The notes under the pieces: generated by a model
Told to the model about the DNA's origin: nothing
The model's database searches: none
Seen by the model: the letters and a program-made list of their open reading frames with translations, nothing else
NCBI GenBank assembly: GCA_030668875.1
Contig: DAOVER010000017.1
Span: forward strand, 1-32,000
DNA length: 32,000 nucleotides
DNA from: Candidatus Heimdallarchaeota archaeon
GTDB taxonomy: Archaea; Asgardarchaeota; Heimdallarchaeia; Heimdallarchaeales; Heimdallarchaeaceae
Direction of reading: 5' to 3'
Shown here: in pieces, positions 2-5,368 of the stretch
How the letters are laid out: each line of letters starts with the position of its first letter
How positions within the stretch are numbered: the stretch's first letter is position 1
Position numbers and translations under genes: made by a program

Positions 2-1363
2 CAAATCCTTCGGGACTGAAACAGAGGTGTTAAACGCTACCATAAACTCTCCCAAGCGGTTGATATCCAACCCCAGCACTTGTTTCTTACCTTTAGGAAT
101 CTTTGGGAGATAAGTGTGGAGAAGTTTGTGAGAGTGGAAACTGTTATGTGTCCCCTCTAAGACCACATCTACTCGAGGTTTGAAACAGGGAGCACTGCCG
201 CTGTTCACTTGGAAAACCTTAATTTCTGCACCATTTTTTACGTATTCCAAGACTTTGGGGGGAAAGAGAACTTGAGCAGTAAGTTTCTTCTTGCCCATTT
301 GTGGAAAACCTAAAGTGGTTCTACCATGGTTCTTTACTTGTCTGGTCAAATCTTTTGCATTCCCTTCACGGGTGATAACATAATCTTTTTTCATTAGTAG
401 TTTTACTGGTAATCTTCCTTGTTTTTTACGTTTGAATGGGAGAGGAACAAGCTTGTCTACAGGTAAACCTTGTAATAATTGAGGGACACTCTGCATGAAC
501 TGGTCAAAGAGTGTGAAAACTACCACCTGCCTTACGGCAGAAAAGAGTTTTCGAGTAGGCTTACCCATTATTTCTGCTAATTCCTTAGCTAATTTTTTGA
601 GACTTTTCCAACGAGAAGGGTGAAAGCTGTTGATCCACGAGGTGAGAAAGGGAGCAACAACATGTTGTTCTTGTTTCAAGAGTTTAAGTTTATTTTTGAA
701 AGCTTGCTGATTCTTCGTGAGGGTAGGAAGTTGTGAGAAATTATTGGTCTGGTGAGTCAGAACATCATCGATTGCTTGCACCACATCTTGTTGCTTGTAA
801 GTAGGTAAAGCTCCATTCAACACCAGATTATTAGAGAAATAGTAGTTCCTCTGTTTCTTCTTGCTAAAACTATCTAGCTGCATTCTAGAACTGGTCAGAA
901 GGTTAATGACGTACCTTCTCTGTAGTTTCCAATATTTTCCCAAACTCTGTTCTGTATAAGGCGAGCGACCAAAAATCATCCATTCCACCAGCTGTTGAGG
1001 GTTCTTATGCAAGAAGTTGAGCAACCCTTGCACTTTCTTCTCTTTGTCTATCTTCCCTTTTACTGCTATCTGGAGCCAGTGGTAAGCGCTCTCAGCGATG
1101 TTAGGGTTCTTCCCCACTGCTTTCCCTACCTGACGGACAAAGTAGCGTTCTTTAGGGTTAGTGCGGTAGAGGTCTAAAGCTTTCTTAACTACATCTTGAC
1201 TGAGAAGGTCGTGCTGCCTCTCTTCTAAATTCCTAATTCTTCGGTTGATTTCTTCTCGTTGAGAGGGGGATACACACTTCAACGCTACCTGATAACTCCT
1301 CATCACCTCGTCTAAGTTAATAGGTGGAGAAGTTTTAGAGGTGCTTGCTGCTTGTGTGCCCAT
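2..1363 (-). CDS. tnpB: Large TnpB/Cas12-like RuvC protein, N-terminal 454 aa (3'-truncated by window edge; absent from the ORF track)
   Basis: Manual translation from ATG 1363 is open to position 2: MGTQAASTSKTSPPINLDEVMRSYQVALK...KPRVDVVLEGTHNSFHSHKLLHTYLPKIPKGKKQVLGLDINRLGEFMVAFNTSVSVPKDL. Lys/Arg-rich, with RuvC-I-like VLGLDIN (Asp433, codon 67-65), directly downstream of an IS607 tnpA remnant. Confidence 0.75.
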   Translation of the reverse strand, partial: MGTQAASTSKTSPPINLDEVMRSYQVALKCVSPSQREEINRRIRNLEERQHDLLSQDVVKKALDLYRTNPKERYFVRQVGKAVGKNPNIAESAYHWLQIAVKGKIDKEKKVQGLLNFLHKNPQQLVEWMIFGRSPYTEQSLGKYWKLQRRYVINLLTSSRMQLDSFSKKKQRNYYFSNNLVLNGALPTYKQQDVVQAIDDVLTHQTNNFSQLPTLTKNQQAFKNKLKLLKQEQHVVAPFLTSWINSFHPSRWKSLKKLAKELAEIMGKPTRKLFSAVRQVVVFTLFDQFMQSVPQLLQGLPVDKLVPLPFKRKKQGRLPVKLLMKKDYVITREGNAKDLTRQVKNHGRTTLGFPQMGKKKLTAQVLFPPKVLEYVKNGAEIKVFQVNSGSAPCFKPRVDVVLEGTHNSFHSHKLLHTYLPKIPKGKKQVLGLDINRLGEFMVAFNTSVSVPKDL

Positions 1364-1394
1364 CTTCTACTCGTACGTATAATCCTTAAATTGC

Positions 1395-1402
1395 TATTTA
1401 AA
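1395..1402 (-). promoter_or_regulatory. Candidate archaeal TATA box (TTTAAATA) for the tnpB-like gene
   Basis: TTTAAATA on the minus strand ends 32 nt upstream of ATG 1363, inside the 50-nt tnpA-tnpB gap. Confidence 0.4.
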
Positions 1403-1413
1403 CCCGAAGAATC

Positions 1414-1627
1414 TCACTGGTTCTGTGGTGCTTTTCCTCTCCTCTGTCTGTGCAACCTCCCTGCAAAAGAAGTGACGAGAGCGATCATATCTTCTACTAA
1501 TTTGTTTTCAGTTGCTTGCTCCTCTTGTCCTCTTGCAAGGGAGGAGTTTTTCTTCCTTCTCCCACCTCCTCCTAGTACTAGCTGATACTCCTTGCATGTA
1601 TGCTGCTATGCCAATTCTAACTAACAT
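1414..1627 (-). pseudogene. tnpA: IS607 tnpA (serine-recombinase transposase) remnant with internal deletion and frameshift
   Basis: Frame A from ATG 1627: MLVRIGIAAYMQGVSASTRRRWEKEEKLLPCKRTRGASN* (MerR-type HTH of IS607 TnpA). Overlapping frame B: GQEEQATENKLVEDMIALVTSFAGRLHRQRRGKAPQNQ* (IS607 TnpA C-terminal LVED..SFAGRL helix). The catalytic YARVS domain between them is missing. Confidence 0.8.
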
Positions 1628-1721
1628 AGTTTTAGTTTTACTCTTCTTTCGAAAACATTTTCTGTTTTTTGGCAAGATTGAGCAATATTTCTTTCAGCTG
1701 TTGTTTACAGTTAGAACCACA

Positions 1722-2552
1722 TCATATCTTATCTGAAATGTTTTCTTGAACCGATTTCAGTAAATTGGATGACTGATCTGATTTTTCATGAAAGTTTAAT
1801 CCTATGGGGGATATGCTAATACTTTTCATGGTTTGCACTGCCCATGTATCGGTGTTTTCAGGAAAAGATTTTTTCTGTTCTCCCCACAACCATAAGTATG
1901 GGAGTTTTCGTGGATCTTTCTTCTCTACCATGTAGTTATCGTATTTATAAAACGCAGGCCTTGTGATATATACCTTTGTTTCTTCTGTAATCTCAGTAGG
2001 GTAATTTACGTTTAGAAAAGCTAGACTCTTTGGCCATTCCATATCCAATGTGTGCTCAACAATCATACTAGATATTTTTGCCATTCTATCAAAATTAATT
2101 CCTTTTTGTTCAATAAGTTGTGCATCATCAGATAAAGCAGCTGAAAAAGCAATTGCTGGAACATTATTGAAAGCTGCTTCGAATGCGGCAGCGCAAGTAC
2201 CACTTGTTAAAATTGAATGAATTGAAGAATTATCTCCATAATTAATTCCACTTACAACCATGTTAGGTTTCTTTTTTAGAACATGAATGCCCACAAGAAC
2301 ATTATCAGCTGGTGCACCAGTTGTACTGTAGCCTGTTGAACCATCATCATAATCTATTTGTGAGAAACGTATGGGTTTATGGAATGTAAGAGCCTTTGAT
2401 ACAGCTGAACTAGCTTCTGCAGGTGCAAAACACACCACTTTAGCTATTTTGGCAAGTTCTTCTCTAACAGAATTTAGGCCAATGGATTTAATTCCATCAT
2501 CATTTGTCAATAGAATAAGTTTATCTTTCACAAAGATAAAATGGACATCCAT
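1722..2552 (-). CDS. surE: 5'/3'-nucleotidase SurE
   Basis: ILLTNDDGI, SKALT, G(A)PADNV, VVSGINYGDN and SGTCAAA motifs. Confidence 0.95.
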   Translation of the reverse strand: MDVHFIFVKDKLILLTNDDGIKSIGLNSVREELAKIAKVVCFAPAEASSAVSKALTFHKPIRFSQIDYDDGSTGYSTTGAPADNVLVGIHVLKKKPNMVVSGINYGDNSSIHSILTSGTCAAAFEAAFNNVPAIAFSAALSDDAQLIEQKGINFDRMAKISSMIVEHTLDMEWPKSLAFLNVNYPTEITEETKVYITRPAFYKYDNYMVEKKDPRKLPYLWLWGEQKKSFPENTDTWAVQTMKSISISPIGLNFHEKSDQSSNLLKSVQENISDKI

Positions 2553-2662
2553 TTGTTAAGTTTTATCTTTGAAAATAAATTTTAGTTCAAACATAACGTT
2601 AAAAAAAACTAATCGTGCTGTTCTTTTAGAATAGATAATTACTTACATAAAGGTGTTTTACG

Positions 2663-5368
2663 ATGACAGAAAAATATGTCTATAAATTTTTTAGTAAAGC
2701 TATAAGTGAAGGAAAAGCAGAAATGAAACCATTGCTAGGTGGAAAAGGAGCAAATTTAGCTGAAATGACAAATTTGGGGCTGCCTGTACCACCAGGTTAT
2801 GTAGTAACAACTCAAGCCTGTCTTCATTTTCTAGCGAATAACGACTCCTACCCTGAAGGGTTGGAAGAACAAATAGAATTAGCACAACAAGGATTAGAAA
2901 ATTCCGCAGGGAAGAAATTGGGAGATGAAAATGATCCCCTTTTAGTTTCTGTAAGGAGTGGATCAGTTATTTCCATGCCTGGAATGATGGACACAGTATT
3001 GAACCTTGGTTTAACTGATAGTTCCGTTGAAGGGTTGGCAAAGGTGTCTGAAGACCCAAGATTCGCCTATGATTCATACCGTCGTTTTATTTACATGTAT
3101 GCTGATGTGGTAAAAGGTGTCAGCAAAACATTTTTTGAGAAAGAATTGAAAAAACTCAAGGAAGAACTCGGAGTAGAATCTGATACAGAAGTACCTGCTG
3201 AAGAACTCAAAAAACTTGTCCAAAAATACAAAGAAATCTATAAAGAACATTTGGGCGAAGACTTTCCACAAGATCCACGTGTTCAGTTATCTGATGCAGT
3301 TAAGGCTGTTTTTAAAAGCTGGAATAATAAACGTGCTATTGATTATAGAAACCATCAAGGCATTTCACATGATTTAGGAACTGCCGTCAATATTATGATA
3401 ATGGTTTATGGTAACCTAGGAGAAACATCTGCAACCGGTGTAGCATTCTCAAGAAACCCATCCGATGGAAGTAAGGGAATTTACGGAGAATATCTCATTA
3501 ATGCTCAAGGAGAAGATGTTGTTGCTGGAATTAGAACCCCAGTACCAGTTGCAAATCTCAAAGACGAGATGCCCCCCCTCTATAATGAATTAGTAGAGAT
3601 TTCTGGGAATTTGGAAACTAGATATAGAGACATGCAAGATATGGAATTTACAATTCAACAAGGAAAACTCTACATGCTTCAAACAAGAAATGGTAAAAGA
3701 ACTGGAATCGCTGCAAGTCAAATTGCTTATGATTTAGTTAATGAGGGCGTTATCACTAAGGAAGAGGCTATCATGAGGATCACTCCAAGTGATGTTGAAA
3801 ATGCTTTATTCCCATCTATTGATTGGCAACAAATAAACGCTAATGCTCCAATCAAACAAATTAAACATGAATTAAGTGATAAACTCCTTGGCTCAGGTTT
3901 AGCTGCTGGAGCTGCTGCTGCGACTGGACTTGCTATTTTTGATGCCGATAGAGCTGAAGAAGTAGCAAAACAAAATAAAGATGTAATTCTAGTAAGGGTA
4001 GAGACAAACCCATCCGATTTTCATGGTATGGCTGCCAGTAATGGTATTCTAACAATGAAAGGCGGTCTAACAAGCCATGCTGCAATTGTTGCAAGACAGA
4101 TTGGTAAAGCTTGCATTGTTGGAAGTGAAAAAGGTGGAATATCTATTGATGTTGAGAAAAACGAACTTTATGCTAAGGGTATAACCATTAAGGAAGGAGA
4201 CTGGATTACTGTCGACGGTGATGATGGTTCAATCTATGCTGGTAAACTGCCTACTAGGCCAGCTAACTTGCCAGATTCAATGAATATAATTTTAGATTGG
4301 TGTGATGAAACCGCTAAAATTGGTGTGAAAGCTAATGCTGATAAACCTGATCAATTCATAAAGGCTTTAGAATTTGGAGCTAAAGGTATAGGTCTATGTA
4401 GAACAGAACACATGTTCTTTGATAATCTTGATTTAGTTAGAGGTATGATTTTAGCCAAAACTGATGAAGAAAGAAAACACTATGTTGATCAGTTAGAACC
4501 TGTTCAAGAAGAGGATTTCCGAGGCATATTTGATGTTTCAAAAGGCTACCCTGTTATTATACGTTTGATTGATCCTCCTCTACATGAATTCTTGCCAAGT
4601 GAAGAAGAATTAATGACTGAGATTTTTGAAGCAAAATTAGCAGGAAAGAAGGATGACGATTTCAAGGAAACAGCTGATATGTTAGACGTTGTAAGAGAAA
4701 TGAAGGAACAAAATCCTATGCTCGGTTTAAGAGGTTGTAGACTCGGAATTACAATGCCAATTGTAACAGAAATGCAAGCTCGTGCAATATTCAAAGCAAC
4801 TGCTAAAGTTATCAAAAGCGGCAAAGAAGTACTTCCAGAAGTAATGGTTCCTCTTGTAGGGTTCCAAAAAGAATTCGAACACCAAAGAACAATCATTGAT
4901 CGCATTGCTAAGGAAGTGATGCAAGAAGAGAGTATCGAATTTAAGTATCTTGTGGGAACAATGATTGAAGTACCCAGAGCAGCTTTAACAAGTAGTGAAA
5001 TTGCAGGTGGAGAACAAGGGGCCCAATTCTTTAGTTTTGGAACTAATGATCTTCATCAAATGACTTTAGGTTTTAGCAGAGATGATGCTGGTCCATTTAT
5101 CTCCAAATATGTGGAACAAGGAATAATCAAAGATGATCCATTTGTTTCAATAGAAGAAACAGGTGTCGGACGATTAATGGAGATATGTGTAGAAGATGGA
5201 AAAACTGCAAATCCTGAAATTGAATTAGGGATTTGCGGTGAACAAGGTGGGGATCCTCAGTCTATAGATTTCTGTTATAGAATCGGTTTGGATTACGTAT
5301 CTTGCAGTCCATTTAGAGTACCAATAGCTAGATTAGCTGCCGCTCGCGCTACATTAAGCAATAAATAA
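2663..5368 (+). CDS. ppdK: Pyruvate, phosphate dikinase
   Basis: GGKGANLAEM, SVRSG..SMPGMMDT, GGLTSHAA (phospho-His), GTNDL and CGEQGGDP motifs; 901 aa. Confidence 0.97.
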   Translation: MTEKYVYKFFSKAISEGKAEMKPLLGGKGANLAEMTNLGLPVPPGYVVTTQACLHFLANNDSYPEGLEEQIELAQQGLENSAGKKLGDENDPLLVSVRSGSVISMPGMMDTVLNLGLTDSSVEGLAKVSEDPRFAYDSYRRFIYMYADVVKGVSKTFFEKELKKLKEELGVESDTEVPAEELKKLVQKYKEIYKEHLGEDFPQDPRVQLSDAVKAVFKSWNNKRAIDYRNHQGISHDLGTAVNIMIMVYGNLGETSATGVAFSRNPSDGSKGIYGEYLINAQGEDVVAGIRTPVPVANLKDEMPPLYNELVEISGNLETRYRDMQDMEFTIQQGKLYMLQTRNGKRTGIAASQIAYDLVNEGVITKEEAIMRITPSDVENALFPSIDWQQINANAPIKQIKHELSDKLLGSGLAAGAAAATGLAIFDADRAEEVAKQNKDVILVRVETNPSDFHGMAASNGILTMKGGLTSHAAIVARQIGKACIVGSEKGGISIDVEKNELYAKGITIKEGDWITVDGDDGSIYAGKLPTRPANLPDSMNIILDWCDETAKIGVKANADKPDQFIKALEFGAKGIGLCRTEHMFFDNLDLVRGMILAKTDEERKHYVDQLEPVQEEDFRGIFDVSKGYPVIIRLIDPPLHEFLPSEEELMTEIFEAKLAGKKDDDFKETADMLDVVREMKEQNPMLGLRGCRLGITMPIVTEMQARAIFKATAKVIKSGKEVLPEVMVPLVGFQKEFEHQRTIIDRIAKEVMQEESIEFKYLVGTMIEVPRAALTSSEIAGGEQGAQFFSFGTNDLHQMTLGFSRDDAGPFISKYVEQGIIKDDPFVSIEETGVGRLMEICVEDGKTANPEIELGICGEQGGDPQSIDFCYRIGLDYVSCSPFRVPIARLAAARATLSNK

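Follow-up and report, generated by a model that had tools for sequence, protein, structure and literature searches.

The 32,000-nt stretch of DNA considered here (the window; G000:C12:1-32000) comes from a Candidatus Heimdallarchaeota genome, and a long open frame of putative transposon origin lies at its very beginning. This frame had been proposed to encode an oversized TnpB/Cas12-like RuvC protein, which raises the question of what kind of nuclease the locus specifies, whether the copy is a functional gene or a relic, and whether the family to which it belongs is informative on the origins of Fanzor and the larger Cas12 proteins.

A tnpB Frame Truncated by the Contig Start

The original prediction described a stop-free, basic ORF of at least 454 codons carrying Asp433, and the ORF listing and the translation showed that this description was correct in every detail. 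The frame has an ATG start, runs stop-free through its 454 codons, and is open at its 3' end (table 1); it is cut at this length because the window begins at base 1 of its contig, and thus it is the contig start, not a stop codon, that truncates tnpB. The encoded protein is basic and terminates ...QVLGLDINRLGEFMVAF..., with Asp433 (codon 67..65) sitting in VLGLDINRLG, and the segment QVLGLDINRL is translated from window 82..53 (-). Its nearest full-length relative, P0063 (647 aa, encoded at locus L037), showed 94% identity to the window protein across all 454 residues, and the DNA identity of L037 to the window element was 94.5%. The dN/dS of the window tnpB was 0.15 compared with L037, C37, and C48, and values of 0.13–0.17 were obtained across all pairwise comparisons, window versus L037 included. 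The frame is therefore under purifying selection, and because of its dN/dS of 0.15 the window ORF is no chance frame. The full length, which had been forecast at 630–680 aa, is 638 and 642 aa in two paralogs and 647 aa in P0063.

Table 1. Features of the window copy, layout of the P0001 model, and paralogous copies in the same genome. Domain limits of the window copy follow the AF2 model of P0001 (residue numbers minus 3) and the model of REC alone (window-protein residues 15-322).
Feature	Position or content	Strand	Basis
tnpB, 5' part (454 codons, ~70% of ~647 aa)	window 2..1363	(-)	ORF listing, paralog comparison
WED strand 1	window-protein residues ~19-29	(-)	AF2 model of P0001, numbering minus 3
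Helical REC lobe	window-protein residues 33-305, window 449-1267	(-)	P0001 model and REC-only model
WED barrel	window-protein residues 320-405, window 149-406	(-)	P0001 model transfer
RuvC start with Asp433	window-protein residues 429-454, Asp codon 65-67	(-)	P0001 model transfer
IS607 tnpA (serine recombinase) remnant	window 1420..1627	(-)	tblastn with intact TnpA P0004; NF033518 partial match C12:1432-1527
Non-coding left end of element, ~80 nt	window 1628..1706	(-)	alignable to left ends of other copies (CAATCTTG block and others)
ACTGT flanking target-site motif (family consensus AC-N-GT)	window 1707..1711	(-)	occupied/empty-site alignment
P0001 model layout	WED strand 22-32; all-helical lobe 36-308; WED barrel 323-408; RuvC from 432, ribbon inserted		
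C48 copy	intact tnpA of 196 aa, then 638-aa ORF		
C37 copy	642-aa ORF		
C87 copy	interrupted by in-frame TAG		
C96 and C76 copies	fragments at contig ends; C48/C87 subfamily, 88-90% identical to P0001		

Protein Fold and an Enlarged REC Lobe

The AlphaFold (AF2) model of the paralogous protein P0001 (pLDDT 86.8, pTM 0.73) showed the architecture WED-REC-WED-RuvC-TNB(zinc ribbon)-RuvC. Its best Foldseek match was CnCas12f1 (E 3.6e-10), and in VIA-align it matched AsCas12f with Z 13.5 (rmsd 5.2, 364 residues aligned), the IS607 TnpB of ISFba1 with Z 12.6, and the TnpB of ISDra2 with Z 11.7, each of these alignments covering model residues 22-634; Fanzor2 reached Z 10.2. In addition, the TnpA of an intact copy (P0004) scored 163.8 bits on NF033518 (cut-off 110) and contains Resolvase and MerR domains, so that in this copy tnpB is directly preceded by the gene of a serine recombinase whose N terminus is a MerR-type HTH, as in the IS607 family. 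The assignment of the window frame to an IS607 element, as the gene of a RuvC protein with the TnpB/Cas12f fold, thus stood, both in the structural matches (Z 11.7–13.5) and in the recombinase score.

In compact TnpBs, REC comprises roughly 100 aa. The ~240 extra residues that had been postulated ahead of RuvC-I were borne out by the P0001 and REC-only models, and they belong mainly to a helical REC of ~270 aa. When modeled alone (window-protein residues 15-322), the lobe gave a pLDDT of 89.8; the best Foldseek match of this model in the PDB had an E of 0.4, its best wide VIA-align match had Z 7.7 over 85 residues, which is within noise for helical models, and the REC cores of TnpB, Cas12f, and Fanzor2 aligned to it with Z 4.7–5.6 at most. 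The REC insert is assignable to no known fold.

The curated family models touched only the C-terminal ribbon, and all of them scored below cut-off, with 24.8 bits for PF07282 (cut-off 26.3), 16.6 bits for NF040570 (guided_TnpB, cut-off 100), and 11.7 bits for NF038280 (IS607_TnpB, cut-off 350). At least 16 ordinary TnpBs, mostly open frames of 406–426 aa, are encoded in the same genome, and these scored 115–159 bits. The low curated scores compared with those of ordinary TnpBs in the same genome indicate that the large proteins, which carry a histidine in RuvC-III as described below, are a separate lineage. One ordinary TnpB match (126 bits; G000:C58:52070-52954) was located within a 1043-aa open frame, for which fusion or read-through is possible.

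A Histidine in the RuvC-III Motif

Among 32 aligned family members, D436 was invariant, and E535 in ...LKIE.L..., the residues H591, C594, C610, and C613, and H620 in NTHxNAAxNI were each at least 90% conserved. In HMM alignments to Cas12f chains, the RuvC-II Glu was matched by E535, and the RuvC-III Asp, namely the Asp of NADxNAAxNI, by H620. Since H620 occupies the RuvC-III Asp position, the triad is D-E-H, in which the RuvC-I Asp and RuvC-II Glu of the TnpB triad D-E-D are kept and the last Asp is not. The expectation that the usual RuvC-II, zinc-finger, and RuvC-III segments would follow the visible part of the frame was consequently only partly realized: the full-length copies have the RuvC-II Glu, a zinc ribbon (H-x2-C...C-x2-C), and the RuvC-III motif, but the Asp of this motif is replaced by His. 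The same His was found in every readable motif among 158 relatives, which were recovered out of 1.84 billion cluster representatives.

Only a few Asgard genera carry the family. The only organism names among the homologs are Heimdallarchaeota and Heimdallarchaeaceae, in agreement with the Asgard host that had been suspected from the DNA, plus Odinarchaeota for longer relatives. Proteins of 1200–1784 aa (P0155, P0169, P0181, P0186, P0189, P0190, and P0194) have the C-terminal part with RuvC, ribbon, and His in common. Relatives of 800–1784 aa occur, and the two with names are from Odinarchaeota; among those of 1200–1784 aa, which carry N-terminal parts of 1000+ residues, one weak MazE-like match and several proline-rich tails at the end were observed.

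In other RNase H-fold nucleases, for example in the DEDH center of Argonaute, His is the last metal ligand. It is possible, short of probable, that the lineage with the D-E-H center and the large REC comprises active RNA-guided DNA nucleases that are confined to Asgard archaea, rely on a histidine in their RuvC chemistry, and have a novel REC lobe, perhaps as monomers where Cas12f dimerizes, and that it represents a distinct, uncharacterized class of OMEGA effectors. If so, the lineage could provide a compact-editor scaffold, and its relatives of 800–1784 aa would be further elaborations. Cleavage by a His center would broaden the chemistry and the domain plan of TnpB-family RNA-guided nucleases, and it would supply a defined protein, an RNA scaffold, and a candidate TAM from archaea that stand near the eukaryotic stem.

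Alternatively, the His-type protein could be RNA-guided but catalytically dead, or a nickase, and act as a DNA binder that, for example, represses or marks the target or donor for TnpA. This is unlikely. It would fit with the replacement of the RuvC-III Asp by His in all relatives with a readable motif, and nuclease-dead TnpB derivatives (TldR, Cas12k, and Cas12m) are known (PMC10691335, among others). However, the RuvC-I Asp and the RuvC-II Glu are invariant or nearly so, and strong purifying selection acts on NTHxNAAxNI. In lineages that became inactive, several catalytic residues and the transposon link are usually gone, whereas this family is mobile and tnpA-linked, and the terminal His of the Argonaute center mentioned above argues in the same direction. 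TnpB clades with a conserved RuvC-III Asp-to-His change, namely RIIIr-4 and archaeal branches, have also been argued to be probably still active (PMC10691335). A protein that does not cleave would be a transposon-borne, not domesticated, nuclease-dead TnpB and would bear on the help that OMEGA systems give to transposons.

A Conserved RNA Scaffold at the Right End

A conserved 3' RNA and right end had been named as features to look for across the genomic copies, and both are present in the full-length ones. The ~90 nt that follow the stop codon are better conserved among the family copies than the coding sequence is, and the homology among copies ends abruptly after ...TTTCATAACGTGCGT. The consensus RNA consists of a hairpin (CCCCUC-N9-GAGGGG), an AAAC/GUUU stem around an 8-bp stem, and a pseudoknot in which the loop of the hairpin pairs with the last 8 nt. 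The cells of this consensus were paired in 95%, compared with 25–44% when the partners were slid, and seven pairs were changed on both sides, compared with 1.6 in shuffles. The pseudoknot has at least 7 bp in 27 of the 31 copies, and compensatory changes in it were observed in L017, L018, L024/L025/L037, L031, and L032, extending to subfamilies that are only 39–44% identical in protein. At least L031 and L032, from a second subfamily, have the same hairpin-plus-pseudoknot design with a fully co-varied sequence. The ending ...FPSxHVRG of many homologs is the translated hairpin. A single-sequence fold of the 3' 239 nt gave a z of -1.21, which by itself says little, and an Rfam search (E<=1) with the C48 copy's 3' region returned no family, RAGATH-18 included. 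In the paralogs and relatives, a conserved structured RNA thus overlaps the 3' end of tnpB and terminates where the element does, at its right end. The predicted scaffold ends exactly where an omega-RNA would.

We infer RNA guidance and the identity of the TAM by analogy with characterized TnpBs. In such a system, transcription through the tnpB 3' end would yield an omega-RNA whose scaffold ends at the transposon right end and whose guide would be the adjoining flanking DNA. The ribonucleoprotein would then find the donor or target site in its empty state (AC-N-GT plus flank) and cut or bind it, by which the element would be retained and spread. TnpA from intact copies, acting in trans, would move the window element.

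Copy Number and Mobility of the Family

The window genome (G000) holds diverged copies of the element with about 71% nucleotide identity (table 1). Copies were present in all 23 genomes of the genus and in both genomes of its sister genus, with 1–12 matches per genome, and in none of the four genomes from three other genera of the same family. Of the ~30 loci, about 9 have a full-length tnpA ahead of the gene, and about a dozen more have tnpA remnants. A second subfamily (G000:C95:34008-35831; L029, L031, and L032) shows about 40% protein identity and has no adjacent tnpA.

For the C48 copy (locus L003, element 912-3637 of G000:C48), an empty site was found in related genomes. Metagenome contigs from runs X1 and X3 joined L003 912 directly to 3637, the flanks being otherwise identical, whereas contigs from runs X2 and X4 crossed the left junction into the element; thus, filled and empty alleles of L003 coexist, which points to recent movement. 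Loose ends clustered at L003 911 and 3638 in marine-sediment metagenomes. The empty allele has a single base, A, between the flanks where both junctions have C, and with this A-for-C difference the crossover at the C48 copy is placed only approximately. Depth over the right-end scaffold (L003 3542-3658) was 10–30 times higher than elsewhere, since many copies in the community share this scaffold. Deletion derivatives without about 555 bp of tnpA recurred in the metagenome (L003:1016-1580) and in the genome (L005, G000:C96), and the window copy with its internally deleted tnpA is a parallel case.

The presence of several copies and of both occupied and empty sites, together with the lack of long target duplications and terminal inverted repeats, conforms to the mobility of IS607 elements. 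The element is thus of the mobile OMEGA type and belongs to an Asgard-restricted, uncharacterized TnpB lineage.

Insertion Site and State of the Window Copy

The IS607 tnpA remnant that had been recognized upstream of the frame proved to be real. When the intact TnpA of a paralogous copy (P0004) was used as the tblastn query, its residues 1–37 were found at window 1627..1517 with 84% identity, and its residues 156–196 were found in a different frame at window 1539..1420 with 73% identity; a 55-aa ORF in the remnant matched a MerR HTH (E 3.9e-5). About 118 tnpA codons are deleted in between, the serine-recombinase core among them, and because this catalytic core is lost the window copy is non-autonomous.

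The first base of the element proper is window 1706, right after ACTGT, which is located 9–10 nt past the surE stop codon (window 1722-1724). The sequence AC[C/T]GT stands at each of the 12 left junctions, the right ends of the family copies terminate ...CGT or ...TGT, with ...TTTCATAACGTG(C/T)GT expected for the window copy, and the junctions have in common just the short AC-N-GT / ...CGT core. Upstream of AC-N-GT, the TAM search found no conserved position among the 12 left flanks. We regard AC-N-GT as the putative recombinase crossover core and as a candidate TAM. Alignment with the occupied window showed that the insertion site is empty in the related genomes G025 (L045, G025:C177) and G020 (L046, G020:C68), where ACTGT is also present, with ...TAACTGT on one side of the insertion point and TAATTT... 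on the other. In G021 (L044, G021:C97), an element of a different subfamily, with a C48-like left end, lies at the same point 9–10 nt past the surE stop, which suggests that one AC-N-GT site near surE was used repeatedly or that one element was replaced by another. By eye, the 276-aa gene at window 1722-2552 (-) is surE-like (5'/3'-nucleotidase) from its N-terminal sequence, and the 901-aa gene at window 2663-5368 (+) is pyruvate phosphate dikinase-like; both look intact, and the insertion is placed in the 3' flank of surE.

Beyond residue 454 the window copy is unassembled, right end and RNA included, and its integrity is judged from the 94%-identical L037. The window tnpB is very unlikely to be a dead relic that was truncated or decayed in the genome itself and not by assembly. 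Such a relic would fit with the destroyed tnpA of this copy, with the absence of a matching C-terminal part from all other G000 contigs, and with the further copies in G000 that are broken, for example C87 with its in-frame TAG; however, the 454 codons are intact, with a dN/dS of 0.15 against a full-length ortholog, and contig ends inside copies of the same repeat are common in the MAG (C96, C76, and C87). Contig assembly would have broken within the multi-copy repeat, leaving only residues 1–454 of about 647 visible. C76 and C96 were ruled out as the missing C-terminal part of the window tnpB, being members of the C48/C87 subfamily.

Taken together, the window ORF is very probably the tnpB of a tnpA-deleted, non-autonomous IS607 element located just 3' of surE in a Heimdallarchaeial genome, and a member of an Asgard-restricted TnpB/Cas12f lineage with the layout WED-REC-WED-RuvC-zinc ribbon-RuvC, an enlarged REC, and a D-E-H center. 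The locus itself is ordinary, a decayed IS607 copy keeping its tnpB, and it is the lineage that is unusual in its large REC and D-E-H center. The window copy, truncated and tnpA-dead, adds little by itself; the useful material is the intact C48 paralog and the near-identical L037.

Comparison with Known Systems

The proposal that the family is an undescribed, expanded OMEGA clade specifically informative on the origin of Fanzor or of the larger Cas12 proteins deserves almost no credence. In its favor are a length and an enlarged REC like those of mid-size Cas12 and Fanzor1, an Asgard host, and relatives of 800–1784 aa, of which the two named ones are from Odinarchaeota. Against it, both structure and sequence are matched best by Cas12f and TnpB and not by Fanzor, the derived state lies in RuvC-III and not in RuvC-II, a CRISPR array is lacking, no REC of a Cas12 or Fanzor matches the REC insert, the occurrence in few Asgard genera (158 clusters of 1.84 billion) indicates a side branch, and Asp-to-His clades were already catalogued (PMC10691335). 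The label of an undescribed clade was accordingly too strong, the catalogued RuvC-III Asp-to-His TnpB clades having been set against the family by description; a literature search for Heimdallarchaeota together with TnpB returned no relevant paper. The special Fanzor link did not hold either, since Fanzor2 (Z 10.2) ranked under Cas12f and TnpB (Z 11.7–13.5), the PDB profile search returned no Fanzor chain even at E<=10, and the homologs bear Asgard names only. Downstream of three full copies, where a look for any CRISPR array had been advised, no direct-repeat families or tandem arrays were found, and the family has neither the adjacent array nor the cas adaptation genes of a type V effector. 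Nothing links the family specially to Fanzor or Cas12 origins. It also departs from TldR-type proteins in being tnpA-linked, multi-copy, and polymorphic, with one catalytic position changed.

Fanzor2 (ApmFz2, PDB 9b0l) has the TnpB superfamily fold and IS607-type ancestry in common with the family. The family differs from it in the low structural score, in the lack of a profile match, in its prokaryotic host, those of Fanzor being eukaryotes or giant viruses, and in a canonical RuvC-II combined with an altered RuvC-III, whereas Saito and colleagues are said to have named a rearranged RuvC-II Glu in 2023 as the Fanzor hallmark.

TnpB clades with a RuvC-III Asp-to-His change were described by Altae-Tran et al. 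2023 (PMC10691335) as RIIIr-4 and the archaea-only RIIIr-6/Ser-6, and some of these clades are both archaea-only and linked to serine recombinases. Compared by description, RIIIr-4 and RIIIr-6/Ser-6 have the same clade-wide Asp-to-His change as the family, which is likewise archaeal and serine-recombinase-linked. RIIIr-4 is described without a zinc finger, whereas the family keeps its HCCC ribbon, and, as a further difference, the family is without an RHH/MazE partner gene.

The best matches were to Cas12f (AsCas12f, 8dzj; CnCas12f1, 8hr5; OsCas12f, 9nzq), with Z 12.3–13.5 in structure and E 9e-7 in sequence; the segments in common are RuvC-II, the zinc ribbon, and RuvC-III. In contrast to Cas12f, the family is transposon-borne, with no CRISPR array or cas genes, and has a D-E-H triad and a larger REC. 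Compared with the IS607-family TnpBs (ISFba1 TnpB-reRNA, PDB 8iaz; ISXfa1, PMC10711439), which are about 390–430 aa, the family protein is about 640 aa, its REC of about 270 aa has no structural match, its RuvC-III has His for Asp, its NCBIfam IS607_TnpB score is 11.7 against a cut-off of 350, and its RNA falls outside Rfam, RAGATH-18 included. In both, tnpB lies behind an IS607 serine-recombinase tnpA, the WED-REC-RuvC-zinc-ribbon fold is common to the family and ISFba1 TnpB (Z 12.6), and a structured 3' RNA extends up to a right end that lacks terminal inverted repeats.
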